From Nitrospirota bacterium (GTDB lineage Bacteria; Nitrospirota; 9FT-COMBO-42-15; HDB-SIOI813), in the NCBI GenBank assembly GCA_016217665.1, contig JACRHF010000019.1:1-47183 (forward strand): a DNA stretch of 47,183 nucleotides, in the 5' to 3' direction. Under the pieces are notes generated by a model, which searched no databases, was not told the origin of the DNA, and saw only the letters and a list, made by a program, of their open reading frames with translations. Below, piece after piece: positions 18,153 to 39,161 of the stretch (within the stretch, counting starts at the first letter, position 1; each line of letters starts with the position of its first letter). The position numbers were made by a program, and so were the translations under genes.

Positions 18153-18158
18153 AAGGCC

Positions 18159-21071: not shown

Positions 21072-21120
21072 AATCCCTCACGATCATTTACCTCAGTATC
21101 ATTTACCTCAGTATCATTTA
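21067..21120 (-). repeat. 15-bp tandem repeat at the nuoM/nuoN junction (2 perfect units plus 2 degenerate or partial end units)
   Basis: ATCATTTACCTCAGT at 21083-21097 and 21098-21112. A partial unit at 21113-21120 contains the nuoM stop. A degenerate unit at 21067-21082 contains the nuoN RBS and ATG. Confidence 0.9.
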
Positions 21121-22625
21121 ATCGTCGCGTAATAACCATGGACTGTATTCATCTGCTCTATCAGATGGTTGACGGATACGTGCATGATGTCGAGAAACGG
21201 CGCTGAGTTTAATCCGATCCAGAAGACAAACAGCGCCAGGACGGCCATGGCAGCGATCTCCCTGCCGTCAACATCCCATGCCTCCCGGATGTGGTGGCTC
21301 GAAACCTCGCCCAGCGCTATCTTCTTATACATCCCTAACAGATAAACCGCGCCCAGCATGGCCCCGATGATCGAGAGGCCTGCGAATACCTTATTAAATC
21401 CAAAGGCACCGGTAATAATGAGCAGCTCCCCGATGAACGAATTGGTCCCCGGGATGGCCAGAGAAGAGAGGACGAAGATGGCTAAAAAGGTCGTGTAGAT
21501 GGGGACGGCCTTGGCAAGCCCCCCATAGGCGGCAAGTTCACGGGTATGGGTCCTCTCATAGATCACGCCGATGCAGAGGAACAGGGCGCCCGTAGTTATG
21601 CCGTGATTCAACATCTGCAGGATCCCCCCCTCGATCCCCGTGGCATTCAGGACAAAGAGGCCCAGCGTCACAAACCCCATGTGGCTGATGCTGGAGTAGG
21701 CGATCAGCTTCTTGATGTCTGTCTGGGCCAGTGCCAGGAAACCGCCATAGATAATGGCGATAACCGACAAGACGACGATCGGGACGGCATAATAGGAGGT
21801 GGCATAGGGGAACATGGCCATGGGGAATCTCAGTAAACCATAGGTCCCCATCTTGAGCAGGACCCCTGCAAGGATGATACTCCCTGCGGTCGGCGCCTCC
21901 ACATGGGCATCCGGCAGCCAGGTATGGAATGGGAACATGGGGACCTTGATCGCAAAGGCGATAAAGAAGGCTAAAAAGACCCAGAGCTGCACAGGCAATG
22001 AAAACTTCTGCTGCATCAGGGCGATGATATCAAAGGTCTCTCCCCCTGCAAAGTAGAGGACGATAATGCCGATCAGCATAAAGATACTGCCGGCTAAGGT
22101 GTAGAGGAAAAATTTGAATGCGGCATATATCCTGTTCTTCCCCCCCCAGACACCGATGATCAGATACATCGGTATCAGCATAGCCTCCCAGAACAGGTAG
22201 AAGAGGAAGAAGTCCAGTGCACAGAAGACCCCGATCATGGCCGTCTGCATCACGAGTAGGGAGATCATGAACTCCTTGACCTTCTGCTCGATGGCCTTCC
22301 AGGATGCCACAACACAGATCCATCCCAGCAGGGCCGCCAGGAAGACAAAGAGGACGCTGATGCCGTCAACCCCCATGAAGTAGGTGATGTTCCAGGATGG
22401 GATCCACTGGTAGTGTTCTACAAACTGCATGTGATAGGTCGTCCTGTCAAAGTTGAGGAGAATCGGGATGGAGACGAGGAAGTCCGCCACCGTCACGGCG
22501 AGGGCGATCCACCTCACCAGGCCCGCATTCCTTACAAAGAGTAAGACAGCGGCTCCGGCTAACGGCAGGAAGGTCACTATGGATAATATGGGTATCCCCA
22601 GACTGTTGTGGACGGCCTCGATCAC
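21114..22625 (-). CDS. nuoM: NADH-quinone oxidoreductase subunit M
   Basis: 503 aa. FWEAMLIP (TM5 Glu), AIKVPMFPFHTWLPDAHVEAPTAGSIILAGVLLKMG, MLNHGITTGALFLCIGVIYERTH. All are NuoM-type motifs. Confidence 0.9.
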   Translation of the reverse strand: MIEAVHNSLGIPILSIVTFLPLAGAAVLLFVRNAGLVRWIALAVTVADFLVSIPILLNFDRTTYHMQFVEHYQWIPSWNITYFMGVDGISVLFVFLAALLGWICVVASWKAIEQKVKEFMISLLVMQTAMIGVFCALDFFLFYLFWEAMLIPMYLIIGVWGGKNRIYAAFKFFLYTLAGSIFMLIGIIVLYFAGGETFDIIALMQQKFSLPVQLWVFLAFFIAFAIKVPMFPFHTWLPDAHVEAPTAGSIILAGVLLKMGTYGLLRFPMAMFPYATSYYAVPIVVLSVIAIIYGGFLALAQTDIKKLIAYSSISHMGFVTLGLFVLNATGIEGGILQMLNHGITTGALFLCIGVIYERTHTRELAAYGGLAKAVPIYTTFLAIFVLSSLAIPGTNSFIGELLIITGAFGFNKVFAGLSIIGAMLGAVYLLGMYKKIALGEVSSHHIREAWDVDGREIAAMAVLALFVFWIGLNSAPFLDIMHVSVNHLIEQMNTVHGYYATIK

Positions 22626-22626
22626 C

Positions 22627-24390
22627 CTACCCTCCTCCCATCAGTGAATAGATGATGATAATGACCATGATCCCTACGACCATCCCGAGGGCATAGTGCT
22701 GGAGGAATCCGGTCTGTATCCGCCTGACAGAGGCGCTGATGGATAAGACGAAGGCCGCCACACTGTTGACGAACCGATCCACGATATTCCTGTCAATCCA
22801 CAGACCGATCCCGGCAAGGGAATAGATGACCGGCAGGACGATGGTATTGGAGACCTCTGTAATGAAACCCTCGTAGACCCCGACGGGCCCCTTTGCAATC
22901 CGCATGAAGACCCGGCTCCCCATCCTGTAAGACCAGTCTGTATCCAGACTGATGAGATTTTTAGGATGCAGGTACTTCAGCAGCATAAAAAAGCCCAGGG
23001 CCGTGAACATCAGTATCCCCAGGGATCCGGTGATATGGTCTCCGGTATAGGGTTCAAAATCGACGGGATAGGGGAGCACAGAATAGAGCGGACCGGGGAA
23101 TACACCGATCGCGATACACAGAAAGGCAGCGATCCCCATCCCGATCAGCATGTTGAGCGGGGGCTCTTTGGCCCGGATCCCGGAGTCATGCCCGAAGAAC
23201 ATGTGATAGGGAAGTTTGAGCGTGGTCGAGAGAAAGGTGCCGGACGAAGCCAATACCAGCAGGAGCGATACAATCGCCTTGTGGTCGTGGTTTGCGGCGG
23301 CGACGATCATCGACTTGCTGACAAAACCGCTGAAGAAGGGGAATGCCGATATGGAAAACCCGGCGATCATATAGAGTATCATTGTTAAAGGCATGGTCTT
23401 GTAAAGCCCGCCAAGGTCTGAGAGTTTGCGCTTGCCGGTCATGTATATCACAGAACCGGCCCCCATAAAGAGGAGCCCCTTGTAGAGGATATGGGTAAAT
23501 GCATGGGACACAGAACCGTTCAGGGCCAGCTCTGACCCCAAGCCGATGCCGGTCACCATGTAACCGACCTGACTGACAATGTGGTAGGCCAGCAGCCTGC
23601 GGAAATCATTCTGCAGCATCGCATATCCGACGCCGTATACCGTCATCACCACCCCAAGCCACATCAGCATCTCCGTACCGGCAAAGGCACGCACCAGGAC
23701 ATAGACCGCAGTCTTTGTGGTAAAGGCGGACATGAAGACAGCCCCGGTCACCGTCGCCTCCGGATAGGCATCGGGGAGCCACGCATGGAGCGGCGGCACA
23801 GCGGCGTTCAAGATAAATCCGATCATGATCAGATAAAAACCCATACTCCCGTCATGCTCAATAGGCCCGAAGAGGATCGAACCGGTATCCGCATAATGGA
23901 GGATAATGCCGCCTAATAAACAGACACCGCCGAATACGTGCACCAGGAGATAGCGGAAACCTGCATCAATCGAACGTCTCTCCCGCCTTGCAAAGACCAG
24001 ATAGGCCGAGGCAAAGGCCATGATCTCCCAGAAGACAAAGAGGGTAAAATAGTCGCCGGCAAATACAACCCCTAAGGAGCTGCCTACATAGAGGAATGCC
24101 GCCATGTGCTGTCCCGGATCGTCGACGTGGAGGGAATAGACCATCCCGATAAAGGCCATCAGGGTAAAAACATAGGAGAAGACCAGGCTGAGTTTATCCA
24201 CCTTGCCGAATATGATCTCATGGCCGAGGAAGCTGTGCGCCCCGTAGGTGCCCTCGCCTGCAGAAAAGACGGCTATCATGGCGAATGCCGGGATCAGGAC
24301 GAGATAGGCCTTCCGCACATTCCCTTTAAGGAACGGGATCAGGAATGCCCCCGCGATAAATAAGATGGACGGATGAAACCAATCAATCAT
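22627..24390 (-). CDS. nuoL: NuoL-like antiporter-type subunit carrying the C-terminal lateral-helix/anchor tail; Asn at the TM7 Lys position
   Basis: Start set at ATG 24390 (GAGG 7 nt upstream), giving 587 aa. NuoL-type SHAFTHILYKGLLFMGAG and a C-terminal ...RRIQTGFLQHYALGMVVG tail. The TM7 motif reads ILNAAVPPLHAWLP (Asn codon AAC at 23806-23808). Confidence 0.75.
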   Translation of the reverse strand: MIDWFHPSILFIAGAFLIPFLKGNVRKAYLVLIPAFAMIAVFSAGEGTYGAHSFLGHEIIFGKVDKLSLVFSYVFTLMAFIGMVYSLHVDDPGQHMAAFLYVGSSLGVVFAGDYFTLFVFWEIMAFASAYLVFARRERRSIDAGFRYLLVHVFGGVCLLGGIILHYADTGSILFGPIEHDGSMGFYLIMIGFILNAAVPPLHAWLPDAYPEATVTGAVFMSAFTTKTAVYVLVRAFAGTEMLMWLGVVMTVYGVGYAMLQNDFRRLLAYHIVSQVGYMVTGIGLGSELALNGSVSHAFTHILYKGLLFMGAGSVIYMTGKRKLSDLGGLYKTMPLTMILYMIAGFSISAFPFFSGFVSKSMIVAAANHDHKAIVSLLLVLASSGTFLSTTLKLPYHMFFGHDSGIRAKEPPLNMLIGMGIAAFLCIAIGVFPGPLYSVLPYPVDFEPYTGDHITGSLGILMFTALGFFMLLKYLHPKNLISLDTDWSYRMGSRVFMRIAKGPVGVYEGFITEVSNTIVLPVIYSLAGIGLWIDRNIVDRFVNSVAAFVLSISASVRRIQTGFLQHYALGMVVGIMVIIIIYSLMGGG

Positions 24391-24418
24391 GACAACCTCG
24401 TAAAAAGTCTCGACAGCG

Positions 24419-24544
24419 GACGGCTTCGTAAAAAGCTCCATATGCAAGGCGCGCAAATCCTGAGGAATGAGGCGTACTTGTAGCTACGCCGCAATGACGA
24501 AGGATGCAGCGCAACGCCGCAGATGGACTTTTTACAAAGCCGTC
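24419..24544. repeat. nested-hairpin palindromic element inside the nuo operon
   Basis: GACGGCTTCGTAAAAAGCTCC (24419-24439) pairs imperfectly with GGACTTTTTACAAAGCCGTC (24525-24544). There are internal sub-hairpins, e.g. GGCGTActtgtagcTACGCC. The outer arms resemble those at 2979-3108. Confidence 0.75.
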
Positions 24545-24794
24545 AGTCATAGTAATCCTCTTTCTTCAAGAGCCATACACTCCCGAGGAACTTAAAGACT
24601 GCAATAATCGCGACACAGGAGACAAATCCATAAAAGGCGCTCCAGCCGGGTATCGCATCCCAGGCAAAGGCAATATGGTGACGGGAGGCGATAAAATCCG
24701 ATGCAAATACAACCACCAGGATGACGTAAAATATCGCCCTCCGTTTACCGGCATTCTCAGGGTCGCAAATATAATCCACCATTCCCTTGATCAT
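24543..24794 (-). CDS. small two-TM membrane protein encoded within the nuo operon
   Basis: 83 aa. ATGA stop/start overlap with the upstream antiporter-like gene. Two hydrophobic segments (AIFYVILVVVFASDFI; SAFYGFVSCVAIIAVFKFLG). I recognise no family. Confidence 0.55.
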   Translation of the reverse strand: MIKGMVDYICDPENAGKRRAIFYVILVVVFASDFIASRHHIAFAWDAIPGWSAFYGFVSCVAIIAVFKFLGSVWLLKKEDYYD

Positions 24795-26278
24795 CGAATA
24801 ACAATCTCCTTAGCCAGACTCAGGAAATAATTCGGATAGATACCAATAAGGATCGAGATAATGGCCGTAAGGACCAGCGGGATTGCCACCATCGGGATCT
24901 CTTTAATATCTCCTTCATGACCGTGACCACCTCCGGAATGATGATCATTGGGTTCCTCAAAGAATGCCTTGTAAGTGATGGGTAAAAAATATGCGGCATT
25001 TAAAATCGTGCTGGTTAAGAGGACGATCAGGATCGGTATTTCCTTCGCCTCAACCGATCCGATGACAAGGTACCACTTGCTGATAAAGCCGGCGGCAGGC
25101 GGCACTCCGATCATGCTGAGGGATGCGAGAAAGAATGCCGTCATGGTCCAGGGGAGCTTGCGGCCGATACCGGAGAGCTGGCTGACCTCGGTCTTGTGCG
25201 CGGCACAGTAAATAGAGCCGGCACAGAAGAACAGCGTGATCTTGGAAAAGGCGTGGTTGGCAATGTGCACAATCCCGCCGATCATGCTGCTCGGGGTGAG
25301 GAGCACCGCGCCCAGGATGACATAGGAGAGCTGGCTGACGGTGGAATAGGCCAGCCGCCTCTTCAGATTATCCTGAGTCAGGGCATAGACCGATGCCATG
25401 ATGATCGTGAAAGAGACCACGTAGGCCGTGGCCATCCCAAGGTTCAACTCAGCCATCAGTTTCGTGCCGAAGACATGGAAGATGACCCGCAGCACCGAAA
25501 AGACGCCCATCTTCACCACAGCCACCGCGTGCAGGAGCGCACTGACGGGCGTGGGGGCCACCATGGCCGCAGGGAGCCACGCATGAAACGGCATAATCGC
25601 GGCCTTTGAAAAGCCGACCATGAAACAGATATAGACAACGGTTAAGAGCAGGGGCGAGGCTGAGGTATTCGCCAGCAGACCCTGATCTGAAAAATCAAGA
25701 TTCCCCGTGATATAGTAGGTCAGTGCAATCGCGGCTAACAAAAAGGTCTTGGAGGTGCCGACCAGATAGACGACATATTTCTTGCTCCCCTGCCAGGACT
25801 CCTCTGTCTCCTTGTGATAGACAAGGGGATAGGTCACCAGACTCAGGACCTCATAGAAGACGATCAGCGTAAACAGGTTGGCGGCGAATGCCCCGCCCAC
25901 CGCGGCGAAGATACTGACGCTGAAACTGGCGAAGAACCTCGTCTGGGCGTGCTCTTTCGCACTCCGCATGTAGCCTACAGAATAGACAGAGGCAAATATC
26001 CAGAGAAAGGACGCTATCGTGGCAAAGACCATCCCTAAGGCATCCACCCTGAATTTAAAGGGAACGCCGGGGAGTGTATTAAAGAGGGTGTATTCGATGG
26101 TCCTGCCGGAGAGGATGACCGGCGCCATCGAGATGACGATCAAAAACGTCAGGATCGCCGCCAGAAAGGATGTCGCATCCCTCAGGTTAGGGGTCTTCTG
26201 AAAAAACAATATCAGGAAAGCAGCCGTCAGGGGAAGAAACAGTGCAAGCAGCGGTCTTATGGACTCAATCGTTTCCAC
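24791..26278 (-). CDS. additional NuoL/MrpA-like antiporter-type subunit lacking the lateral-helix tail
   Basis: 495 aa, starts 4 nt after nuoK. FYEVLSL (TM5 Glu), FSKAAIMPFHAWLPAAMVAPTPVSALLHAVAVVKMG (L/MrpA-type PTPVSAL-HA), HIANHAFSKITLFFCAG, GFISKWY. It ends after a His-rich loop (NDHHSGGGHGHEGD) and one more TM. Confidence 0.75.
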   Translation of the reverse strand: METIESIRPLLALFLPLTAAFLILFFQKTPNLRDATSFLAAILTFLIVISMAPVILSGRTIEYTLFNTLPGVPFKFRVDALGMVFATIASFLWIFASVYSVGYMRSAKEHAQTRFFASFSVSIFAAVGGAFAANLFTLIVFYEVLSLVTYPLVYHKETEESWQGSKKYVVYLVGTSKTFLLAAIALTYYITGNLDFSDQGLLANTSASPLLLTVVYICFMVGFSKAAIMPFHAWLPAAMVAPTPVSALLHAVAVVKMGVFSVLRVIFHVFGTKLMAELNLGMATAYVVSFTIIMASVYALTQDNLKRRLAYSTVSQLSYVILGAVLLTPSSMIGGIVHIANHAFSKITLFFCAGSIYCAAHKTEVSQLSGIGRKLPWTMTAFFLASLSMIGVPPAAGFISKWYLVIGSVEAKEIPILIVLLTSTILNAAYFLPITYKAFFEEPNDHHSGGGHGHEGDIKEIPMVAIPLVLTAIISILIGIYPNYFLSLAKEIVIR

Positions 26279-26282
26279 TATT

Positions 26283-26585
26283 CTACCCTTTCATCGTCTG
26301 GATTTCATCCACATTAAGGGCGGCCTTGTTTCTCACCAGGGCAATCAGAATGCCCAGGGCAATGGCCACCTCGGCGGCTGCAATCGTAATTACGAATATC
26401 GAGAATATCTGCCCCCTCAGATCCTGGAGAAAATAGGAGAAGGCCACAAGATTGATATTGACCGAGTTTAGGATCAGTTCCACCGACATCAGGATGATCA
26501 GGATATTTCTTCTCAAAAGGACGCCTGAAGTCCCGATGATAAAGAGGAGAGCGCTCAGGATAATATACCAAGACAAGGGGACCAT
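26283..26585 (-). CDS. nuoK: NADH-quinone oxidoreductase subunit K
   Basis: 100 aa, three TM segments. Conserved ELILNSVN and [12 protein letters not shown] motifs. Confidence 0.9.
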
Positions 26586-26589
26586 GCTC

Positions 26590-27102
26590 CTATCTCAGCT
26601 CCTTTCTACCCAACACAATCGCGCCTAACAAGGCGACTAAGAGTATCAGCGACACCACCTCGAAGGGGAGAATATACTTTGTAAACAACGCCTCCCCTAC
26701 CTCCCTCACGGTCCCGGTAAGGCGGCCCGCCGCAGGCGCTGTGATGACGGCCAGCCTGCTCCTTGAGACAATCAGCACCATCTCAATGACCAGCACCCCT
26801 AAGAGGGCGATCACCCATAACTGCCCTCCGGAGACAAACCGTTCCATGCCGGCCTTGGAGATATCCAACATCATGATGACAAAGAGGAAGAGCACCAGCA
26901 CCGCACCCACATAGACAAACACCTGGACCACGGCAATAAAGGGGGCGCGCAGCATGACGAATAATGCCGCCATCTGTAAGAAACAGACCATCAGGGATAT
27001 GACGCTGTGGACCGGATTTCGGAGAGAAACGACGGCGATCGCTGATCCTACGGCCAATATTGCAAAGACAAAGAAAAACATCTGCTCCGCCACTACCACC
27101 AC
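26590..27102 (-). CDS. nuoJ: NADH-quinone oxidoreductase subunit J
   Basis: 170 aa membrane protein. NPVHSVISL and [17 protein letters not shown] are typical of NuoJ. Operon position between nuoI and nuoK. Confidence 0.85.
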
Positions 27103-27668
27103 CTCTTCTGAACACTCATGTCCGGGACAATCTTTATCCCTGTTTCATCTGTCTCCAGCCTCGCCTTCACAATGACGCCCCCCTCGAACTCCCCAGGGAT
27201 CGCCTGGGGGGTCAGGAGTTCTTCCTTGGTCCGGAGCTGCCTCTGCATCGAGGTGCCGGCCAGTTCATACTCCCTCCCCAGCTTCAACGCCTCGGTCGGG
27301 CAGGCATCCTCACACAACCCGCAGAACATACAGCGCAGGAGATTGATCTCCCACCGGTAAGCTACCCGGTCTGCGATCCCCTTCCCTGTCGTGTCCTGCA
27401 TGGGGACTACCGTAATACACTGGGTAGGACACGACTTTTGGCACAGCTCGCACCCAACACATAATTCCTTCCCCTCTTTATTCCTGTTCAGCGTATGGAG
27501 CCCGCGGAATCTTCTGTACGGGATCCACGTCTCCTCGTCAGGGTATTTCATGGTAACGGTCTTAGAAAAGGTATAGTTGAATGTGATAAACAATCCCTGG
27601 ATGAGGTCTAAGAAAAAGACCTTTTTCAGAAGCCCCTTCAGATCAAAGTTGTGATGGTTCCCGTTCAT
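27093..27668 (-). CDS. nuoI: NADH-quinone oxidoreductase subunit I (2x[4Fe-4S])
   Basis: Start set at ATG 27668 (ATGA overlap with the nuoH stop). CVGCELCQKSCP and CMFCGLCEDACP ferredoxin motifs. Confidence 0.9.
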   Translation of the reverse strand: MNGNHHNFDLKGLLKKVFFLDLIQGLFITFNYTFSKTVTMKYPDEETWIPYRRFRGLHTLNRNKEGKELCVGCELCQKSCPTQCITVVPMQDTTGKGIADRVAYRWEINLLRCMFCGLCEDACPTEALKLGREYELAGTSMQRQLRTKEELLTPQAIPGEFEGGVIVKARLETDETGIKIVPDMSVQKRWW

Positions 27669-28648
27669 ATGATTATCAACCCCGTAATCAGGATGTTCGC
27701 CAGCGATAACGGCAGGAGTATCTTCCACCCGATGCTCATGAGCTGGTCATACCGGTATCGAGGAAAAGTAAACCGGGTCCATATAATGATATAGATCAGC
27801 ATCGCCACCTTCAGCAGGAACCATAGGATACCCGGAAGAAAGACCGGGCCGTCCCACCCGCCCAGGAACAGGAGGACGATCAGGATAGACATCGAGACCA
27901 TGGCCACATACTCGGTCAGCATAAAAAATGCAAATCTCATCGAACTGTACTCCGCATGATAACCGGCGCCCAGGGTCCCTTCATCCTCCGGCAGGTCAAA
28001 GGGAATGCGGTTGATCTCTGCCAGCCCTGCGATAAAAAAGATGACAAATCCAACCGGCTGGTACAGGATATTCCAGTGCCACCCGGACTGGGCCCTCACG
28101 ATATCTAAAAGGCTCAGGGAGTTTACAATCATCACTACCCCGATGCAGGCAAAACTCAGGGCCAGCTCATAACTGATCATCTGCGCTGAGGAACGGAGGC
28201 CGCCGAGCAGGGGATACTTGCTGTTGGAAGCCCACCCGCCGAGGATAATCCCGTAGACGCTCAGGCCTGCGATGGCCAGGACGTAGAGTATCCCTGTGTC
28301 CATATTCGAGATGTACAGATTGACCTCATAATTTACAATGGGGAGGGTCACCTTTTCCCCGAAGGGGATCGTGGCAAACACGGCAAAGGCCGGAACCATG
28401 GCGATGACAGGCGCTATCCTGAAGAGCCACGGGTCTGCCTTTGCAGGGACGATGTCCTCCTTGAACATGAGCTTGATCATGTCTGCAAAGGGCTGCAGGA
28501 TCCCATGCGGACCAACCCGGTAAGGACCGAGCCTGACCTGGATATGCCCTGCCACCTTCCGCTCGATGTAGGTCAAGGGAAGCGGGAGTGCAAACACAAT
28601 CAGGGTAACAACCACCACCTTAATGCCTATCAAAAGCAACTCGATCAT
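27665..28648 (-). CDS. nuoH: NADH-quinone oxidoreductase subunit H
   Basis: 327 aa. GPHGILQPFADMIKLMFKED and EYSSMRFAFFMLTEY motifs. Confidence 0.92.
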   Translation of the reverse strand: MIELLLIGIKVVVVTLIVFALPLPLTYIERKVAGHIQVRLGPYRVGPHGILQPFADMIKLMFKEDIVPAKADPWLFRIAPVIAMVPAFAVFATIPFGEKVTLPIVNYEVNLYISNMDTGILYVLAIAGLSVYGIILGGWASNSKYPLLGGLRSSAQMISYELALSFACIGVVMIVNSLSLLDIVRAQSGWHWNILYQPVGFVIFFIAGLAEINRIPFDLPEDEGTLGAGYHAEYSSMRFAFFMLTEYVAMVSMSILIVLLFLGGWDGPVFLPGILWFLLKVAMLIYIIIWTRFTFPRYRYDQLMSIGWKILLPLSLANILITGLIII

Positions 28649-28659
28649 CGTCTTTCGGC

Positions 28660-29130
28660 CTACCTCTTCCTACCCCACATATAATTGATCATCTCTAAGT
28701 ATCTTGCGTTCATCCCTCTCACGATGGAGTGTATATTGAATACAACACTTTTGAGCATCTTATAAATCAGGCGGGGATGGCTGTCAACTAAGGTCTCAAA
28801 ATCCGCCTTCTCCAGCACGTACACCTTTGTATCCGCAATCGCCACAATGGTCGCAGAACGGGGCCTGCTGTCCAGGAAAGACATCTCGCCGAAGATGTCG
28901 CCATCTTTGTGCAGGGTCAGTGTCAGGAGGTCCCCTTCCGGCGTCGCCTTGCATGCCTTGACCTCTCCCCTTTTGATGACGTAGAGGGATTGTCCGTCTT
29001 CTCCCTCTTTGAATATGGTAGTCCCAAGCTTAAAATCCTTCTCTTTTAACACCTGGGAGACAATATTCAATTCTTCGTCGTTCAGATCTGAGAAAAAATG
29101 GATATCACGAAGCGATTTCGGATCTATCAT
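28660..29130 (-). CDS. stand-alone cyclic nucleotide-binding (CNB/Crp-type effector) domain protein embedded in the nuo operon
   Basis: 156 aa. Beta-roll and phosphate-binding cassette GDIFGEMSFLDSRPRSATIVA, with no HTH or other output domain. ATGA overlap with the nuoG stop, and its own stop lies 11 nt before the nuoH ATG. Confidence 0.8.
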   Translation of the reverse strand: MIDPKSLRDIHFFSDLNDEELNIVSQVLKEKDFKLGTTIFKEGEDGQSLYVIKRGEVKACKATPEGDLLTLTLHKDGDIFGEMSFLDSRPRSATIVAIADTKVYVLEKADFETLVDSHPRLIYKMLKSVVFNIHSIVRGMNARYLEMINYMWGRKR

Positions 29131-31670
29131 TTTATCCCCCCGCCGTGAGATTTACCCGTAAGAGGGAGCACCCTCACCCTTGGGAGCCCCTCCCCTTTTG
29201 TGAAAAACATATTGACACGGACATCTGTAAAGTTCTCCGGTATAAAGACAACACCTTTTGCAGACCTCTTGTTCACGTGCACCGTCAATACGGCCTCATA
29301 CCGCTCCCCTTTTACCGTGACCTTATCCCCTTTTCCAACCCTCAGATCCTTTGCATCCTCTTCGCTGATCTCGACAATGGCTTCGGACAGGATATCCCTT
29401 AAGGTGTCCGTCCTGAGAGAAAGCCTCCCGGAGTGATAGAGATGATTCCCTGTGATCAGGACGAAGGGATAATTGGGATCAGGAGAGGTAGAAGGCATCT
29501 GGCTGGCCGCTGAGGGGACAGATTTCAAATCTGTCCCCTCACTGCTGCCTGCTGCCTTCACTATTGCCCCGTTCCCATCCAGGCTCTCAAAGGCGATCTC
29601 ACGATACATCGGTGCCACCTCTTTGATCTCCTCAAAGATCCCGGCCACAGACCCATAGTTAAATGAGGGATCCACGGCCGCACCGACAGCGGCAATGATC
29701 TCCCAGTCCGCCTTTGCATCCCCCTGGGGCGGCACGAATCTCCTTAACCTCTGGACCCTGCCTTCCTGATTCGTAAAGGTCCCGTCTTTTTCAACAAAGC
29801 TTGCGCCGGGCAGGACCACGCTGGCCATCTTGGCCGTCTCGGTGAGGAACATATCCTGGACGATCAGGAACTTAACCCGGCGGAGGGCCTCTTCGACAAA
29901 CCTTCCATCCGGAAAATCAGAGACAATATCTTCACCGATGACATACAAGACGTCCACCTCTCCCCGCGACGATGCCTCCAACATCCCCTCACATCCCAGG
30001 CCATTCCCGTCCGTGAAACTGTAGCCGGGCAGGATAGCCGGATGAACACCCATCTCCCAGGCCCCCCTCTGGTTTGCCCTGTCAAAGACAGGGAAGAGCT
30101 TGACCTCTTTGCCCAAAAGCCGCAGCGTCCCGACAAGGATGTTCAGGAATTCCAATCGCGAGGGCCCTCTTAATACGTCATTTCCCACAACAATAGTCAC
30201 CGATTTGGAGGATGACATGAAATCTGCAGCAGACTCTATCCTGCCCCAGTCTATGCCGGTCAGCGAGGAGACACTTTCCTTTGAGATATTTTTAATCTGC
30301 TCCCTGCCGGAGAGATCATTCAATTGATCTGCATTCTTATCATAAAGGACTTTGGAGATCCCGCTGAGGATCTCCCCTTCGGCGGCTGGTCTGTGCCGGA
30401 GGGTCAGGGCCGCAGAGCTGTCGAGCTTCATCCCCCTCGGAGAGGCGATGATGATGTTCATCTTTTTATTCTTAGACAGGCGCCTGATCATATAGTCTGT
30501 GACAGGATTTTCATCCGAGATGCCGGACCCGATAACGAGCAGCGTATCCGTGTTTAAGGCATCATATACCGATACACCGCCCCTCCTGAGCTCCATGACC
30601 TCCGCGAATGTCTTCACGGTACTGCTATTCCACCGGCTGCTGGAATCTATGTGGTTTGTCTTCAACACCACCCTCATCAGCCTCTGGAAGAGATAGAGTT
30701 CCTCGTTGGAAAGCCGGCTTGAGGCAATCCCCCCGATCTTCCCTCCGTTTCTTACGACCCCGGTGATCCCTTCCTTGATCGTCTTGAGGGCCTCGCCCCA
30801 TGTGGCGGGTTCAAGCATCCCCCCTTTCCGGATCATGGGGGTCACAAGTCGATCATGGCTCTGGATAAAGGAATAGCCATATCTCCCTCTGGCGCACAAC
30901 GTCTCATTATTGATCCCTTTATCCGGCTTTGAGATGACCCGAAGGACCTCGCCGTTCCTGGCCTGCACCGTTAACTGACAACCCGTGCCGCAGTAGGTGC
31001 ACACCGTATCCACCCCTCTCAGATCCCAGGATCTTGACTTATACCGGAAGGAGCGGCTCATCAACGAGCCGACCGGACAGACCTCGATGCAGTTGCCGCA
31101 ATGATCGCAGTCTAAGTATTCTTTAACAAAACTGGTCTCCCCTGTCCCGGCGCCGCGGTCAATGGACCCTAACACCCCCGCGCCGACCGTCTCGGCACAG
31201 ATGCGGACACACCTCTTGCACTGGATGCACCGGTTGACATTCTGGACAATGACAGGACTCAGGATATAGTCTTCCTCGTGGAACCGCCTCTTTTCTTCGC
31301 CAAAGGGGCTCTTTCGCGGACCGAACTTAAAGGTGACATCCTGCAGCTCGCACTCGCCCCCTTTATCGCATACCGGGCAATCAAGCGGGTGATTCGCCAG
31401 GAGGAGATCAATCATGGCCGACCTGGCAGACTTAACCACCGGAGATTCGGTCAGAACCTCCATCCCGTGCATGACCGGGGTCACGCAGGAGGGCTGGAGC
31501 TTCTTCTGGCCCACAATCTCTACAAGGCAGACCCTGCAGGAGGCCAGCTTGCTGAGCCTCGCATGAAAGCACATCGTGGGTATCTCAAACCCTGCGCTCG
31601 TTGCCGCATCCAGGATCAGGGTCCCGTCCTCGACTGTAATCTCTTTCCCGTTTATTTTTACGGTGGCCAT
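29127..31670 (-). CDS. nuoG: NADH-quinone oxidoreductase subunit G
   Basis: 847 aa. N-terminal 2Fe-2S (CRVCLVE), HPLDCPVCDKGGEC, 4Fe-4S motifs CIQCKRCVRIC and CDHCGNCIEVCPVG, then a molybdopterin-oxidoreductase-like domain. Confidence 0.92.
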   Translation of the reverse strand: MATVKINGKEITVEDGTLILDAATSAGFEIPTMCFHARLSKLASCRVCLVEIVGQKKLQPSCVTPVMHGMEVLTESPVVKSARSAMIDLLLANHPLDCPVCDKGGECELQDVTFKFGPRKSPFGEEKRRFHEEDYILSPVIVQNVNRCIQCKRCVRICAETVGAGVLGSIDRGAGTGETSFVKEYLDCDHCGNCIEVCPVGSLMSRSFRYKSRSWDLRGVDTVCTYCGTGCQLTVQARNGEVLRVISKPDKGINNETLCARGRYGYSFIQSHDRLVTPMIRKGGMLEPATWGEALKTIKEGITGVVRNGGKIGGIASSRLSNEELYLFQRLMRVVLKTNHIDSSSRWNSSTVKTFAEVMELRRGGVSVYDALNTDTLLVIGSGISDENPVTDYMIRRLSKNKKMNIIIASPRGMKLDSSAALTLRHRPAAEGEILSGISKVLYDKNADQLNDLSGREQIKNISKESVSSLTGIDWGRIESAADFMSSSKSVTIVVGNDVLRGPSRLEFLNILVGTLRLLGKEVKLFPVFDRANQRGAWEMGVHPAILPGYSFTDGNGLGCEGMLEASSRGEVDVLYVIGEDIVSDFPDGRFVEEALRRVKFLIVQDMFLTETAKMASVVLPGASFVEKDGTFTNQEGRVQRLRRFVPPQGDAKADWEIIAAVGAAVDPSFNYGSVAGIFEEIKEVAPMYREIAFESLDGNGAIVKAAGSSEGTDLKSVPSAASQMPSTSPDPNYPFVLITGNHLYHSGRLSLRTDTLRDILSEAIVEISEEDAKDLRVGKGDKVTVKGERYEAVLTVHVNKRSAKGVVFIPENFTDVRVNMFFTKGEGLPRVRVLPLTGKSHGGGIK
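29511..29541. repeat. 31-nt perfect palindrome of the GGGGACAGATTT family inside the nuoG coding sequence
   Basis: TGAGGGGACAGATTT c AAATCTGTCCCCTCA read directly. It encodes SEGTDLKSVPS in the nuoG frame. Confidence 0.95.
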
Positions 31671-31698
31671 GTTAATCCTGCTCTAAATCCGCCCTTAG

Positions 31699-31746
31699 CC
31701 CAATCCCCCTTTTTCCCCCTTTATTAAAGGGGGATTATAGGGAGGC
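31699..31746. repeat. CCCCCTTT..AAAGGGGG nested palindromic element (copy 2)
   Basis: CCCAATCCCCCTTTTTCCCCCTTTATTAAAGGGGGATTATAGGGAGG in the nuoF-nuoG spacer. Related copies at 19561-19603 and 38451-38500. Confidence 0.85.
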
Positions 31747-31750
31747 TTAT

Positions 31751-31785
31751 CTGTTCACTGTTCACTGTTCACTGTTCACTGTTCA
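31751..31785 (-). repeat. heptanucleotide tandem repeat (CTGTTCA)5, = (TGAACAG)5 on the coding strand
   Basis: Five perfect units read directly. The nuoF stop codon (31776-31778) and its last codons lie within the array. Confidence 0.97.
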
Positions 31786-33047
31786 CTATTTACCATGCAT
31801 CTCTTATGTTTTACATGATACTCAAACTCTTCCCTGAAATTATTGATCGCGCCCCTCAGGGCCATCACGGCGCCGTCGCCGAGGGGACAGAAGGTGCGGC
31901 CAAAGATATCCCCGCATAATTTAAGGAGGACTTCCACATCCCCCTCTTTCCCTTCACCATGCTCCACCCTCCGCATCACCTTGACAATCCAGTCGAGCCC
32001 TTCCCGGCAGGGGGTACACTTGCCACACGACTCATGGTGAAAGAATTCATGGACAATCAGGGCCCCCTTCACAATGCAGGTCTTCTCGTCCATAACGACC
32101 ACAGCGCCACTTCCCAGCATCGTCCCCTTGGCCGCAAGGGAGTCAAAATCCATCGGGGTATCCAGGTCTTTCTCCGTCAGCATCGGGGCAGATACGCCGC
32201 CAGGAATCACGGCCTTTAACCTTCGGTCCCCTTTGATCCCCCCGGCATGGGTATAGATGATCTCGCGGAGCGGTGTCCCCATCGGGAGCTCATAGAGACC
32301 CGGCTTATTCACATGTCCGCTGACCCCGAACAGCTTGGGCCCCGGGCTTTTGGCCGGCCCGATAGCAGCAAACCACGCTGCCCCTCTGTTGATAATGTGC
32401 GGGATGCAGGCCAGGGTCTCCACATTATTGATAACCGTTGGTTTTCCAAAAAGACCGACTTGGGCCGGAAAGGGGGGTTTTATCCTCGGCAGGGCGCGCC
32501 GGCCTTCCAACGACTCCAGGAGGGCCGTCTCCTCGCCGCAGATATATGCCCCGGCACCCCGGTGCACATAAATATTGAGACTGAATTTGCTCCCCAGGAT
32601 ATTATTCCCCAGATATCCCTTTGCATGGGCCTCCCGGATCGCCTCCTCAAGCCTGTCCGCGCCGAGGGTGAATTCCCCGCGGATGTAGATGTAGGCGTTG
32701 TTCGCTCCGATAGCATAGCAGCCTATTGCAATCCCCTCAAGGAGCTGATGGGGGTCCTTCTCAATGATCGCCCTGTCCTTATAGGTGCCCGGCTCCCCCT
32801 CATCTGCATTGCAACAGAGATACTTGGGGATGGTAGGATCTTTCGGGATAAAACTCCACTTCAGTCCTGTCGAGAAGCCGGCCCCGCCGCGCCCTCTCAG
32901 GCCGGAGTCCTTGACCATCTGGATGATCGTATCCGTGTTCATCTCAAGGGCCTTTTTCAGGGCCTGATACCCGCCGCTGTTAAGATATGCCGTTAGCTTA
33001 AACGAATCAGGGGCATTCATATTTTTCAGAATCACAGGTTCAAACAT
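31776..33047 (-). CDS. nuoF: NADH-quinone oxidoreductase subunit F
   Basis: 423 aa. GRGGAGFSTGLKW (FMN/NADH site), ESCGKCTPCREG (cluster N3). Confidence 0.95.
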   Translation of the reverse strand: MFEPVILKNMNAPDSFKLTAYLNSGGYQALKKALEMNTDTIIQMVKDSGLRGRGGAGFSTGLKWSFIPKDPTIPKYLCCNADEGEPGTYKDRAIIEKDPHQLLEGIAIGCYAIGANNAYIYIRGEFTLGADRLEEAIREAHAKGYLGNNILGSKFSLNIYVHRGAGAYICGEETALLESLEGRRALPRIKPPFPAQVGLFGKPTVINNVETLACIPHIINRGAAWFAAIGPAKSPGPKLFGVSGHVNKPGLYELPMGTPLREIIYTHAGGIKGDRRLKAVIPGGVSAPMLTEKDLDTPMDFDSLAAKGTMLGSGAVVVMDEKTCIVKGALIVHEFFHHESCGKCTPCREGLDWIVKVMRRVEHGEGKEGDVEVLLKLCGDIFGRTFCPLGDGAVMALRGAINNFREEFEYHVKHKRCMVNSEQ

Positions 33048-33070
33048 AGCTTTACTTTTTACAGGGTCGT

Positions 33071-33119
33071 CTTCTTGCTTCTTGCTTCTTGCCTCTTGCT
33101 TCTTACTTCTTACTTCAGC
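33071..33119 (-). repeat. heptanucleotide tandem repeat (CTTCTTG)n, about 7 units, = (CAAGAAG)n on the coding strand
   Basis: CTTCTTG x3, then CCTCTTG, CTTCTTA x2, CTTCAGC. The nuoE stop (33110-33112) lies inside the array, which fills most of the nuoE-nuoF spacer. Confidence 0.95.
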
Positions 33120-33574
33120 CCCTTCAGTATCTCCTCTATCTTCTCTTTTGTGAGGTCTTCATGGTATCTATCGTTTATCTGCATCATCGGGGCAGTCCCG
33201 CAAGAGCCAAGGCACTCTACAGCAGAGAGTGTAAACCTCTTATCCGGGGTAGTCTCCTTCACCTTGATCCCTAATCTCTGGGAGAGGAAATCCATAATAT
33301 GATCAGCCCCCAGGAGAGAGCAGGATATGTTCGTACAGACCTGTATATGGTACTTGCCTACAGGTTTTTTGTTGTACATGGTGTAGAAGGTAGCCACCTC
33401 AAAGACCTGGACAGGCCGCAGGCCGAGGATGTTCGCGATCTCCCGCATTCCCTCCTCGTTGACGTAGCCATATTCCCTCTGAACCACAAAGAGTGCGGGC
33501 ATGACAGCAGACCGCTTATTGGCATATTTGCCGGTCAGCTCGTTAATCTCTTTTACTGCGCCCTCTGAAAGCAT
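33110..33574 (-). CDS. nuoE: NADH-quinone oxidoreductase subunit E
   Basis: 154 aa. Thioredoxin-like 2Fe-2S motifs VCTNISC and CLGSCGTAP. Confidence 0.93.
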   Translation of the reverse strand: MLSEGAVKEINELTGKYANKRSAVMPALFVVQREYGYVNEEGMREIANILGLRPVQVFEVATFYTMYNKKPVGKYHIQVCTNISCSLLGADHIMDFLSQRLGIKVKETTPDKRFTLSAVECLGSCGTAPMMQINDRYHEDLTKEKIEEILKGLK

Positions 33575-33590
33575 CTTACTGCTCCCCCCT

Positions 33591-33618
33591 CTTCTTGCTT
33601 CTTGCTTCTTCTTACTTA
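33591..33618 (-). repeat. heptanucleotide tandem repeat (CTTCTTG)n, about 3-4 units
   Basis: CTTCTTG CTTCTTG CTTCTTC TTACTTA. The nuoD stop (33612-33614) lies at the array end. Same unit as the array at 33071-33119. Confidence 0.9.
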
Positions 33619-34823
33619 TCTACCTCTCCGAACACCGGATCCAGGCTGGATATCACCGCCACCACGTCCGCAAAGTAGGCCCCGCGGGACATCGGATCAA
33701 CACTCTGCAGGTTCACAAAGGACGGCGCCCGGATCTTTACCCTGAAAGGCCGCTCAGACCCATCGCTTACGATATAGAAACCCAGTTCCCCTTTGGGGGC
33801 CTCGATAGAGGAGTAGACCTCACCCTTGGGGACCTTAAACCCATGAGAGATCAGCTTGAAGTGGTGGATAAGGGCCTCCATGTTGGTGGTGATATCCCTT
33901 CTGGGAGGCGAGACAAACTCAGGGACATCGGCATTCACAGGCCCCTCCGGCATCTGTTCCAGGGCCTGGGCAATAATCCTGCTGGCCTGCCTCATCTCTT
34001 CTACCCGCACCATGTATCTGTCAAAGCAGTCTCCATTCCCGCCGGCCGGCACCTTAAAATCAAACCGGTCATAAACGAGATAGGGCGTGTCCTTCCGGAT
34101 ATCCCACTTCACGCCGGACCCTCGCAGAGACGGGCCGGTAAGGCCGAGGTCTACGGCATCCTCTGCGGATATGACCCCCACACCCTTGTTTCTCTGAAGC
34201 CAGATCCTGTTTCCTGTCAGGAGTTGTTCATACTCATCCACCCGCTTTGGAAATATCTGAACAAAGTCCCTGCACTTTTCTTTAAACCCGGAAGGGAGGT
34301 CTCCCCTCACCCCGCCGATCTTCATGTAGTTGTAAGTGAGTCTCGCGCCGCAGAGCATTTCAAAGAGGTCCAATATCATTTCCCGCTCTCTGAAGGCATA
34401 AAGGACGAGGGTGACCGCCCCTAAATCAAGACCCCAGGCGCCAACGGCTAAGAGATGACTCGATATGCGCGAGAGTTCAGATGTGATGACCCTGATATAT
34501 TTGCCCCTCTCAGGAATATCAAGGCCAATCAGCTTCTCTACAGCCATCACGTAGGAGAGGTTATTCGTCATGCTGCTCAGATAGTCCAACCTGTCTGTGT
34601 AGGGAACGAACTGGGAATACAAGAGGTTTTCAGCGATCTTTTCCATACCCCGGTGGAGGAATCCAATATCCGGCTCTGCCTTTACAATCTTCTCACCCTG
34701 CATCCGAAGGACAAGGTGCATCACTCCATGGGTCGAGGGGTGCTGCGGCCCCATGTTCAGGGTGACCTCTTTGGTGATGATATCCTCTCCGTTATTGGAG
34801 GCGATGCTGACGATATCTTCCAT
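33612..34823 (-). CDS. nuoD: NADH-quinone oxidoreductase subunit D
   Basis: 403 aa. LNMGPQHPSTHGV, GFLHRGMEK and a C-terminal RIRAPSF-like segment (KIRAPSFVNLQ). Confidence 0.95.
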   Translation of the reverse strand: MEDIVSIASNNGEDIITKEVTLNMGPQHPSTHGVMHLVLRMQGEKIVKAEPDIGFLHRGMEKIAENLLYSQFVPYTDRLDYLSSMTNNLSYVMAVEKLIGLDIPERGKYIRVITSELSRISSHLLAVGAWGLDLGAVTLVLYAFREREMILDLFEMLCGARLTYNYMKIGGVRGDLPSGFKEKCRDFVQIFPKRVDEYEQLLTGNRIWLQRNKGVGVISAEDAVDLGLTGPSLRGSGVKWDIRKDTPYLVYDRFDFKVPAGGNGDCFDRYMVRVEEMRQASRIIAQALEQMPEGPVNADVPEFVSPPRRDITTNMEALIHHFKLISHGFKVPKGEVYSSIEAPKGELGFYIVSDGSERPFRVKIRAPSFVNLQSVDPMSRGAYFADVVAVISSLDPVFGEVDK

Positions 34824-34827
34824 ACGT

Positions 34828-35355
34828 TTAAACCTTCTCCACCCCGAAGGGGTTATACTGATCCTTGTATCCGGTCAGGGGATAATCCTTTCTCAAAGGG
34901 TAACCCTCCCAGTCCAACGGCATGTAGATCCTCTTGAGATTGGGGTGACCATTAAATACAATACCAAACATGTCAAAGGTCTCCCTCTCCGCAAAATCCG
35001 CGCTCCTCCACACCGGGGTCACCGAGGGGACCGCCTCATTTTCCCTGACCCGGACCTTTATCCGGAGGCGATTTTTGTTGGGAATAGAGTAGAGATGATA
35101 GACGACTTCAAAACAGGCGAGTGACTTGCGGCAATCCACGCCGAGCACATCCGAGAGGAACTTAAACTGCAGATCCGGTTCCTGTTTCAGGAACCTGCAT
35201 ATTTCGACAAGGGCGCCCTTCTCAACAACATGAGTGACCTCACCCCGGAAGACTGTAGTCTCAAGTATAGCCCCCCCAAATCTGTCCTTGATCTTTTTTA
35301 CCAGGAGCGAATAGTGCGGCGCAGGCAACTCTTTTTCTATATCCTTTTCTTCCAT
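34828..35355 (-). CDS. nuoC: NADH-quinone oxidoreductase subunit C
   Basis: 175 aa 30-kDa subunit. [21 protein letters not shown] motif. Confidence 0.92.
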
Positions 35356-35361
35356 GCCTCC

Positions 35362-35841
35362 TCAAACTTTAAACTTGGCAAAAACCGACGGCATCTCCCT
35401 CTTGATCTTCTCCTGGAGCTGCAGGAAACCGTACAACAGCGCCTCCGGCCTGGGCGGACACCCGGGGATATAGACATCCACCGGCACCACGAGGTCCGTA
35501 CCCTGCACCACACTATAGGTATTGAACGGCCCGCCTGCCGATGCGCAGCCGCCCATGGCAATCACCCACTTTGGCTCCGGCATCTGCGCATAGAGCCTTT
35601 TGACTGCAGGGGCCATCTTTTTTGTCATCGTGCCTGCCACAATCATGACATCCGACTGCCTGGGAGAAGCCCTGAAAATTATCCCAAACCTGTCAGTGTC
35701 ATACCTTGAACATCCCGCGGCAATCATCTCGATGGCACAGCAGGCCAGACCAAATGTCATAGGCCAGAGGGCAGACCTGCGCCCCCAGCTTACAATATGA
35801 TCCACGGTGGTAAACAGTACATTTCCTTCTGTCACACCCAT
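35362..35841 (-). CDS. nuoB: NADH-quinone oxidoreductase subunit B
   Basis: Start set at ATG 35841 (AAGGGGG RBS), overlapping the nuoA 3' end by 10 nt. The track's upstream ATG 35862 is possible. [22 protein letters not shown] and CPPRPE motifs for cluster N2. Confidence 0.9.
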
Positions 35842-36191
35842 TCTAACGCCCCCTTTTTCCATGCATAGATAAACCCGATGACAAGGATGGCTATAAAAAT
35901 AAACATCTCTATAAAGGCAAACATCCCTATATCCCTTAAGACAACGGCCCAGGGAAAGAGGAAGAGGGTCTCAACATCAAAGACAATAAACAGGATGGCC
36001 ACGATAAAAAAATGGACCTTAAAGTGTCCGGCATCGGCATTTCCAATAGGCTCCATACCGCATTCCCATGGCAAGAGTTTTTCCCGGGTAGGATTTTTTG
36101 GACTGACGAGGAAGTTGATCAAAAAAACCATAGAAGCCATGAAGATCACAAAACCTGCTATGAGTAAGACAGGGAGATAAGTGATTAACAT
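35832..36191 (-). CDS. nuoA: NADH-quinone oxidoreductase subunit A
   Basis: 119 aa, three TM segments. ECGMEP and [12 protein letters not shown] motifs. First gene of the operon. Confidence 0.9.
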
Positions 36192-36264: not shown

Positions 36265-36867
36265 TCACAGGATATATCTGACTAACAGAAAACCTGCGAT
36301 CAGGAGGGCGAAGAAGGAGAGGGCCAGCCAGTCAAAGTATTTCTCGATCTTTTCCTTCATGACAGGGCCGAAGTAGGAGATGAGACCCGCGACCAGGAAA
36401 AATCGTGCCGAGCGGCCGATTACAGAGGCGATGACGAGCGTGAGAAAGCTGATCTTAGTCACACCGGCGGCGATCGTGATGACCTTGTAGGGGATCGGCG
36501 TGAATGCGGCGGTCAAAACAGTGATAAACGCATTGTCATTATAGGCCTGTACGACCTTATCAAAGACCTCCCGGGAAAAGACGTGCCCGATAAAGATGCC
36601 CCCGACCGCCTCCCATACCCCCCACCCGATGGCATATCCGGCCATCCCCCCGAGAACAGAACCCACGGAACAGACAAAGGCATACCCCATGGCGCTGGCC
36701 GGGACAGCAATGACCATAGCGATCAGCAGGACATCGGGCGGGATGGGGAAAAATGAAGACTCTGCAAAGGCCAGCAGGAAGAGCGCCTTAATGGCATGCG
36801 GCGTGGAGGACCAGTGAAGGACCCAGTTATAGAGCCTGCGCATCCATTGCATGGAGGTTCGGTACAT
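36265..36867 (-). CDS. YqaA/DedA-family (VTT domain) membrane protein
   Basis: 200 aa. AFAESSFFPIPPDVLLIAM and TPIPYKVITIAAG motifs. Confidence 0.8.
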   Translation of the reverse strand: MYRTSMQWMRRLYNWVLHWSSTPHAIKALFLLAFAESSFFPIPPDVLLIAMVIAVPASAMGYAFVCSVGSVLGGMAGYAIGWGVWEAVGGIFIGHVFSREVFDKVVQAYNDNAFITVLTAAFTPIPYKVITIAAGVTKISFLTLVIASVIGRSARFFLVAGLISYFGPVMKEKIEKYFDWLALSFFALLIAGFLLVRYIL

Positions 36868-36881
36868 TGTATAATAGCCCT

Positions 36882-37289
36882 ATGAAAAAACCGGGACTTC
36901 CACCCCTTTGGACAGTGATTGTCATCCTCCTCACGATCGGCATCAGTGAAGTCGCCCTGAGGATCATCACATCGCCCTCCGGCCTCCTCCTCCTCGAGGA
37001 CATAGCGCTCCTCCTCTGGGGAGTCGCACTCTTTTCCGGAGGTCTTTTTTCCCTGTCCAGTTATTTCTTTGAGACAAAATGGAGAGGCTTTCAGGGCCTC
37101 ATCTGGGTGTACAAGACTATAATACCTGTCGGCGGGAAAGTCAACGCTATCCTATTCGGGGTCATCGGGATACTCATCGGCATCCTCTCTATCCTCAGGG
37201 TGCTGTCATCTCACTTCCTGCTTCTCCCCCTTTTCCTTTCCTCAATCAACCTTGATAATCGTTCGATCTCTTCGGGGCTCGTCTTATAA
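36882..37289 (+). CDS. hypothetical membrane protein
   Basis: ATG at 36882 (MKKPGLPPLWTVIVILL...), about four hydrophobic segments, no recognised family. Its 3' end overlaps the convergent blaI-like gene by 79 nt, which lowers confidence. Confidence 0.35.
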   Translation: MKKPGLPPLWTVIVILLTIGISEVALRIITSPSGLLLLEDIALLLWGVALFSGGLFSLSSYFFETKWRGFQGLIWVYKTIIPVGGKVNAILFGVIGILIGILSILRVLSSHFLLLPLFLSSINLDNRSISSGLVL

Positions 37290-37639: not shown

Positions 37640-37657
37640 AGAAGATTGATACCACGA

Positions 37658-38446: not shown

Positions 38447-38450
38447 GACC

Positions 38451-38500: not shown

Positions 38501-38526
38501 TCCACGCTCCCTTGTGAGCCTGCGAT

Positions 38527-39150: not shown

Positions 39151-39161
39151 CCCGCTCCCCC

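Follow-up and report, generated by a model that had tools for sequence, protein, structure and literature searches.

A cyclic-nucleotide-binding domain protein encoded between nuoG and nuoH, a candidate sensory partner of one bacterial complex I lineage

Cyclic-nucleotide-binding (CNB) domains bind cAMP or cGMP and normally control an attached or partner module. In the well-studied CNB proteins (CRP, PKA-R, Epac, HCN or MlotiK1), the ligand at the phosphate-binding cassette (PBC) repositions the C-terminal helix, and this movement is the output. CNB-like domains of the CRP/FNR class can sense other ligands as well. Bacterial complex I is viewed as a core of 14 subunits whose regulation is mainly transcriptional. 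Supernumerary subunits are known, namely Nqo15 and Nqo16 of Thermus thermophilus, the homologues of NDUFS4, NDUFS6 and NDUFA12 in Paracoccus and the mitochondrial NDUFA9, NDUFAB1 and NDUFA10. We know of no complex I accessory subunit with a CNB fold.

Here we describe a small CNB protein whose gene lies between nuoG and nuoH. Its architecture is close to that of the CRP-family sensors GlxR of C. glutamicum, CRP of M. tuberculosis and Clr of S. meliloti, with the same N-helix, eight-stranded beta-roll, PBC helix and long C-helix, and its PBC shares their canonical G-E...R-S-A pattern. Unlike them, it ends about 20 residues past the start of the CRP hinge, carries the family-specific tail NYMWGR[KR]R, has no winged helix, and is encoded inside a structural operon. 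Two stand-alone proteins, Mfla_1926 (PDB 3gyd) and Gmet_1532 (PDB 3mdp), also consist of a single CNB domain with no effector and are of similar size and fold (TMq 0.75-0.80), but they are only 24-28% identical to it, the conserved C-terminal tail is absent from them, and their entry titles give no function or link to complex I. In Family 2B encapsulin a CNB domain is likewise part of a large bacterial assembly rather than of a kinase, a channel or a transcription factor; there it is an insertion inside the shell protein, while the protein described here stands alone. With the known supernumerary subunits of complex I it would share the concept of a non-core protein on the 14-subunit core, sometimes with a recruited ligand-binding fold. 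Its gene differs from most bacterial accessory-subunit genes in being located within the nuo operon.

The operon itself shares with the 'green' or '2M' complex I variants (PMC9040806) the arrangement of two MrpD-like proteins in place of NuoL. A text search of that study found no mention of cyclic nucleotide, cNMP or nuoG. No description of such a protein was found either in the full-text literature outside subscription journals on complex I or nuo together with cyclic nucleotides, broad gene-cluster surveys included. Thus, an operon-encoded CNB partner of complex I is provisionally considered as previously undescribed.

The gene and its operon

The window, meaning the whole stretch of DNA that was analysed, comprises 47,183 nucleotides of contig JACRHF010000019.1 from a Nitrospirota bacterium. 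The main features are collected in Table 1. The initial annotation had described a 156-residue open reading frame whose start overlaps the nuoG stop in an ATGA and whose own stop lies 11 nt before nuoH, and all of this can be read directly from the sequence. Between the TAG stop at 28662-28660 and the nuoH ATG lie the 11 nt gccgaaagacg. The nuoG product is also matched by the Pfam domains Fer2_4, NADH-G_4Fe-4S_3, Molybdopterin and Molydop_binding. A scan of the minus strand for promoter-like and terminator-like sites found none between nuoG, the CNB gene and nuoH, with regional counts at chance level. Since the start and the stop of the gene overlap or abut those of its neighbours and no internal signals are present, the CNB protein would be co-expressed with the Nuo subunits.

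Table 1. Features of the CNB gene and the surrounding nuo operon, in coordinates of the window
Feature	Coordinates	Strand	Evidence or remark
Complete nuo operon	19629..36191	(-)	ORFs and Pfam assignments
nuoG, 847 aa, directly upstream of the CNB gene	29127..31670	(-)	TIGR01973, 517 bits, above cutoff
ATGA overlap of the nuoG TGA stop and the CNB ATG (translational coupling)	29127..29130 (ATGA read 29130-29127)	(-)	Sequence
CNB gene	28660..29130	(-)	ATG-started ORF, 156 aa; PF00027 match; AlphaFold2 model
GEVKACK strand motif, residues 55-61, family-specific, with the only Cys (C60)	28948..28968	(-)	Invariant in the alignment
Phosphate-binding cassette (PBC), residues 80-94, FGEMSFLDSRPRSAT	28849..28893	(-)	Most conserved block, 0.92
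Long C-helix (119-151) with aromatic/basic tail NYMWGRKR	28663..28776	(-)	Candidate dimerisation or docking/output element
nuoH, 327 aa, directly downstream of the CNB gene	27665..28648	(-)	PF00146, 408 bits

The genes of the operon follow each other in the order A, B, C, D, E, F, G, CNB, H, I, J, K, a 495-residue antiporter-like protein, an 83-residue ORF, a 609-residue antiporter-like protein, M and N. All 14 core nuo genes are present and separate from the CNB gene. At 22627-26278 (minus strand) NuoL is replaced by the two antiporter-like proteins, of which the 495-residue one has Proton_antipo_N and Proton_antipo_M domains and the 609-residue one a long C-terminal extension, giving four pump-like subunits in total, an arrangement that resembles the 'green complex I' (PMC9040806). 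The 83-residue ORF between them appears by eye to be a two-helix membrane protein; it has no match in Pfam or the PDB and recurs in related loci at 32-61% identity.

Several further observations were made in the vicinity of the operon. Directly upstream of nuoA, at 36265-42119 (minus strand), a VTT-domain protein, a BlaI-like repressor, a 290-residue ORF with no Pfam hit and a 4Fe-4S protein are encoded together with the molybdenum-cofactor genes MoeA, MobA, MogA/MoaB-like and MobB. Part of this context recurs in three related loci (L007, L011 and L014). The molybdopterin and dinucleotide-binding domains of the window NuoG are complete, and the formate dehydrogenase alpha model scores 363 bits on it, below cutoff. 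Right after nuoN an NmrA-like NAD(P)H-binding gene is found (18845-19495, minus strand), which superficially resembles mitochondrial NDUFA9; it was considered as an NDUFA9-type partner and rejected, as no conservation of it after nuoN is seen in related loci. A short way past the end of the nuo operon, at 15831-18807 (minus strand), a gene like the phage regulators of the ORF6N/Rha type lies beside a full-length RecQ helicase. A single 167-residue ORF at 4585-5088 (minus strand) combines a BrnT toxin (residues 5-87) with a BrnA/CopG antitoxin (residues 100-162) and is apparently a fused toxin-antitoxin gene. No cyclase or other gene of a cNMP pathway was found among the window ORFs scanned.

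Domain assignment, predicted structure and conservation

A PF00027 comparison had been proposed for confirming the domain, and the match lies above the gathering score of 27.5. Residues 31-118 align with positions 2-89 of the 89-position cNMP_binding profile with E=2.9e-24 and 85.3 bits. The protein has no match to any further Pfam family, and it shows no homology to the 14 core subunits NuoA-N. A profile search of the PDB retrieves PKG, PKA-R, Epac and CRP-family proteins with E down to 1e-32, covering residues 6 to about 130. Neither the 60 best PDB sequence hits nor the 50 best fold hits contain a complex I chain. The protein has a mass of 17.9 kDa and a pI of 6.4, and its maximal 19-residue hydropathy is 0.85, so that it is soluble and has no transmembrane segment; the idea of the C-terminal helix as a membrane anchor was rejected on the same value.

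The protein ends at residue 156 with no HTH_Crp-type Pfam match and thus lacks a winged helix-turn-helix DNA-binding domain. The NCBIfam models of the CRP/FNR type (CRP, FNR, NtcA, FixK and others) score far below their cutoffs, the best being CRP with 39 bits against 266. Because of the missing DNA-binding domain and these low scores, the CNB protein is not a transcription factor of the CRP/FNR family. It is not of the PKA regulatory subunit or PKG type either, having a single CNB domain in 156 residues instead of tandem CNB domains with an inhibitor or kinase module. The best NCBIfam hit is encapsulin model NF041163 (E=3.3e-15, 56 bits against a cutoff of 400), a likeness at the level of the domain in a protein that is not a member, and encapsulin (PDB 9bhu) also appears among the fold matches. 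No curated NCBIfam model was found that captures the family, and the source annotation of its members reads only 'cyclic nucleotide-binding domain-containing protein' or 'CRP-like cAMP-binding protein'.

The AlphaFold model of the protein was calculated from an alignment of 86 sequences, which takes in relatives at 38-61% identity, and reaches a pLDDT of 89.7 and a pTM of 0.83. It replaces an earlier model from a shallow alignment of 49 sequences with a pLDDT of 64 and weak Foldseek scores. The model comprises a short N-terminal helix, the beta-roll strands between residues 29 and 107, the PBC helix 82-87 and the helices 108-117 and 119-151. In the model the eight-stranded beta-roll, the PBC helix and the flanking helices of a CNB domain are all present, with TMq of 0.7-0.8 to solved CNB domains. 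The best Foldseek match is cAMP-bound GlxR (4cyd_A; TMq 0.78, rmsd 2.5 Å over 145 columns), and M. tuberculosis CRP, Clr and the stand-alone proteins 3gyd and 3mdp are among the other top matches. The alignments to CRP proteins cover only their sensor half (TMt about 0.5). The closest solved relatives in sequence and structure are genuine cNMP binders, which would support the reading as a sensor. Helix 119-151 is predicted as a single long helix, along which the pLDDT drops from 93 to 57 towards the tip, as would be expected for a helix projecting from the domain. The segment of about residues 111-140 is amphipathic with a muH of about 0.55. Pfam, the PDB profile search, AlphaFold and Foldseek all agree with the proposal in the initial annotation that the protein is a CNB domain with no DNA-binding or enzymatic output domain and only a C-terminal helix.

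The conservation map was calculated as the mean top-residue frequency per region over 82 unique family members. The PBC, which belongs to the segment FGEMSFLDSRPRSATIVA (residues 80-97) of the window protein, follows the family pattern FGEMSFLDGRP[R/H][S/T][A/S]T with a mean of 0.92. The C-terminal tail (residues 140-156) reaches 0.88, the C-helix (residues 119-139) 0.81 and the N-terminal helix 0.63. In the window protein the contact residues of the PBC are Gly81 and Glu82, which correspond to the Gly-Glu pair at the ribose 2'-OH, and Arg91, Ser92 and Ala93, which correspond to the Arg-[ST/A]-Ala group at the phosphate. Gly81, Met83 and Asp87 are invariant in all 82 members, and Glu82 is kept in 79 and lost in three. 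Position 91 is Arg in 59 members and His in the other 23 (28%); the His91 members are spread across several operon types and often also carry S92T and A93S. A relative at 38% identity has Leu at a PBC contact position. Thus, the complete CNB fold and cassette with a ligand-contacting Arg, as originally claimed, are found in the window protein with Arg91, but this Arg does not hold for the family as a whole. With Arg91 replaced by His in more than a quarter of the members, Glu82 lost in a few and Leu in the 38% relative, some members may bind cyclic nucleotides differently or not at all, and the ligand chemistry may not be uniform.

Outside the PBC, the Cys of the GEVKACK strand is kept in 80 of the 82 members. 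The end of the C-helix and the tail read [IV]V[RK]GMN.RY.EM.NYMWGR[KR]R and are near-invariant. In particular, Met140, Asn141, Tyr144, Met147, Tyr150, Met151 and Arg154 stay invariant even with the relatives at 38-45% identity included. The C-terminal 38 residues alone gave no match when compared with the PDB sequences. The conservation map thus places the strongest constraint on two surfaces, the nucleotide pocket and a helix and tail that lie outside the known CNB output modules. Judged from the alignment, this conserved C-terminal element with no known structural match would look like a lineage-specific interface. Two tandem-CNB proteins of 339 and 411 residues (P0260 and P0222) have CNB domains that end with a helix motif resembling ...MN.RY...NYM.G.., which suggests a wider CNB subfamily sharing the helix.

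Distribution, synteny and selection

A homologue search returned 357 proteins at E<=1e-5. The best 120 of them are nearly all 156-158 residues long (extremes 156-168) and 67-95% identical, and their named sources are metagenome-assembled genomes (MAGs) labelled Nitrospirae, Deltaproteobacteria or Thermodesulfobacteriota. Three homologue contexts were inspected and all have the order nuoG-CNB-nuoH. A scan with one genome per species gave 422 stretches encoding a CNB relative. By submitter label the best 80 of these comprise 6 Nitrospirae or Nitrospiraceae, 48 'Deltaproteobacteria', 19 Thermodesulfobacteriota and 7 others, the Delta1 symbiont of the gutless worm Olavius being one of the last; all 80 hosts are uncultured and represented by MAGs. 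In tblastn comparisons of these best 80 stretches, nuoG was found directly upstream of the CNB gene in each of the 66 loci that leave space for it, counting one locus where NuoG is split into two HSPs (L029), and nuoH directly downstream in all 72 readable loci. An exhaustive search of 50%-identity representatives added only three full-length proteins of the same architecture, at 61%, 45% and 38% identity. The latter two are also encoded between the NuoG C-terminus and NuoH, and the first one lies on a contig that is too short to show its neighbours.

A second sample was chosen independently of the CNB gene, by similarity to the window NuoH, and consists of 78 metagenome loci with identities between 97% and 40%. 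Where NuoH is at least 64% identical, the CNB gene is present in 27 of 27 loci (25 in full, 2 cut at the contig end). Where NuoH is at most 55% identical, it is present in none of about 40 loci with readable upstream sequence. In the loci lacking the CNB gene where NuoG was detected, the distance from the end of NuoG to nuoH is, with two exceptions, 17-214 nt, compared with 490-770 nt in the CNB loci. These roughly 40 loci agree with the earlier statement that canonical nuo operons pass directly from nuoG to nuoH. From the contrast between the two groups of NuoH-chosen loci, the CNB gene is a defining character of one complex I lineage. The initial annotation had suggested looking for nuoG-CNB-nuoH synteny in other genomes and had named absence of the gene from the operons of relatives as evidence against a link to complex I; in this lineage no readable locus lacks the gene between nuoG and nuoH, and the gene is under purifying selection like that on a core subunit.

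The CNB gene stays with the nuoA-K core across six layouts of the distal membrane arm. These are K-L-M-N; K-L-M-M-N; K, two MrpD-like, M-N as in the window; K, two MrpD-like, two M and N; K-M-N followed by an MrpD-like pair; and K-M-M-N followed by an MrpD-like pair. The CNB-bearing relatives of the window operon include 2M and hybrid five-pump layouts, and as the gene is also found with a canonical L-M-N arm, it is separate from the green/2M feature. Among the loci L010-L089 (for example L016, L019, L037 and L057) at least six layouts were seen, including ones with two NuoM copies or five pump-like subunits and a rearranged K-M-N-MrpD-small-MrpD order. Three assemblies contain two CNB-type nuo operons each, either as true duplications or as mixed MAG bins, and each operon has a separate CNB copy. 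The paired copies are about as diverged as their NuoH proteins, with CNB against NuoH identities of 88% and 78% (L001/L004), 93% and 95% (L020/L031), and 71% and 73% (L074/L082).

The CNB gene is under core-subunit-like purifying selection. Its median identity to the window over 80 species is 65.7%, compared with 77% for NuoB, 71% for F, 68.5% for D, 68% for H, 62% for K, 60% for E and C, 56% for I and 50% for G and J. In three close relatives with unsaturated dS (0.2-0.4), dN/dS is 0.09-0.11 for the CNB gene and 0.03-0.15 for core genes. The length is fixed at 156-158 residues in the 82 unique members. Identities of the CNB protein and the Nuo subunits are correlated through their common phylogeny, which explains these correlations, and they are therefore not taken as evidence of co-evolution.

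Proposed function and alternatives

The CNB gene is almost certainly real, functional and tied to this complex I, and a functional link to the enzyme is strongly supported by the genomic comparison. We consider that the protein is probably a physical partner of complex I, either as a subunit or as an assembly factor, and, with slightly less assurance, that it binds a cyclic nucleotide. Taken as a whole chain, the reading that we narrowly favour is that of a cytoplasmic cNMP sensor dedicated to this complex I lineage as its accessory or regulatory partner. A more specific version, in which the operon would encode the protein as a 15th subunit whose binding of a cyclic nucleotide gates the enzyme allosterically, either between forward and reverse electron transport or between on and off, is tentative and rather doubtful in our view. 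What we infer are the protein's physical association with complex I, the nature of its ligand and a helix-mediated output of the signal.

In the proposed mechanism, a soluble cytoplasmic sensor specific to one complex I lineage would be translated together with the Nuo subunits. In this protein a CNB beta-roll of the CRP type, its nucleotide pocket intact, is followed by a long C-helix that terminates in the near-invariant aromatic/basic tail. Via the C-helix and the tail the protein would dock on the cytoplasmic side of complex I and serve there as an accessory or regulatory subunit, possibly dimerised through the C-helix in the manner of CRP. A cyclic nucleotide in the pocket would then reposition the C-helix, as in CRP, PKA-R, Epac and HCN, and the movement could modulate the activity of the enzyme, its assembly state or the direction in which electrons flow. 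We propose docking and modulation because movement of the C-helix is the output in known CNB proteins, the tail is invariant in the lineage and the gene is inseparable from it. A search for a lineage-specific insertion of at least 4 residues in NuoH as a docking site found none, and in the same comparison NuoI differs only in a 7-residue C-terminal segment.

Other explanations have to be weighed against the sensory partner. A neutral or selfish insertion, or the decaying remnant of a CRP/FNR regulator, might be suspected from the likeness of the protein to a CRP-family regulator truncated behind the C-helix; yet its fixed length, a dN/dS of about 0.03-0.1, the near-invariant tail and a retention of 100% across a lineage whose NuoH has diverged to about 59% identity effectively exclude this. 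The CRP-like sensor domain with a dimerisation helix and no DNA-binding domain would also fit a soluble signalling protein that acts on a target outside complex I, such as a transcription factor, a kinase or another enzyme, with the operon site setting its amount by nuo expression, and 3gyd and 3mdp illustrate that stand-alone CNB proteins of unknown function exist. We regard this as very unlikely, since the position between nuoG and nuoH is invariant in more than 100 loci, with no occurrence elsewhere in the sample, and regulators of unrelated targets are not usually coupled translationally within a structural operon. In addition, each duplicated operon keeps its own CNB copy, which a single global regulator would not need.

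Somewhat less improbable, though still unlikely, are two roles at complex I itself, to which we give the same low probability. One is a structural accessory subunit on a recruited CNB fold, whose pocket would be empty, permanently filled or occupied by another ligand and which would stabilise the complex without conveying a signal. It draws on the same synteny and selection evidence as the sensor; the exchange of Arg91 for His, often with S92T and A93S, suggests that the canonical phosphate contact is not essential, and ligand-binding folds are reused in mitochondrial complex I, for example in NDUFA9 with NADPH. However, a functionless pocket is hard to reconcile with the PBC as the most conserved block, which retains Gly81, Glu82 and the [ST]-A positions; a phosphate contact is still possible with His, and the genuine cNMP binders among the closest relatives also speak against it. 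The other is an assembly factor or chaperone that acts transiently, for example in joining the peripheral arm (A-G) to the membrane arm (H-N), possibly in a nucleotide-dependent manner. A soluble protein from a co-transcribed, translationally coupled gene exactly at the boundary between peripheral-arm and membrane-arm genes would suit such a role, but assembly factors are usually neither conserved like core subunits nor duplicated with each operon copy, and no resemblance to a known complex I assembly factor was found in the sequence or fold matches.

Extra proton-pumping subunits have been discussed in connection with reverse electron transport (PMC9040806). Many of the CNB-bearing operons carry such subunits, and there, we infer, a means of switching the enzyme would be physiologically meaningful. 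Hundreds of species-level genomes under Nitrospirae, Deltaproteobacteria and Thermodesulfobacteriota labels belong to the lineage, the gutless-worm symbiont among them, and annotators could replace the generic 'cyclic nucleotide-binding domain-containing protein' by the name of a specific family. If gating is true, a second messenger would directly control a respiratory proton pump of bacteria. If the sensory partner proposed here is true, an operon-wired second-messenger sensor, as old as this enzyme lineage, would add a new level to the control of respiration.
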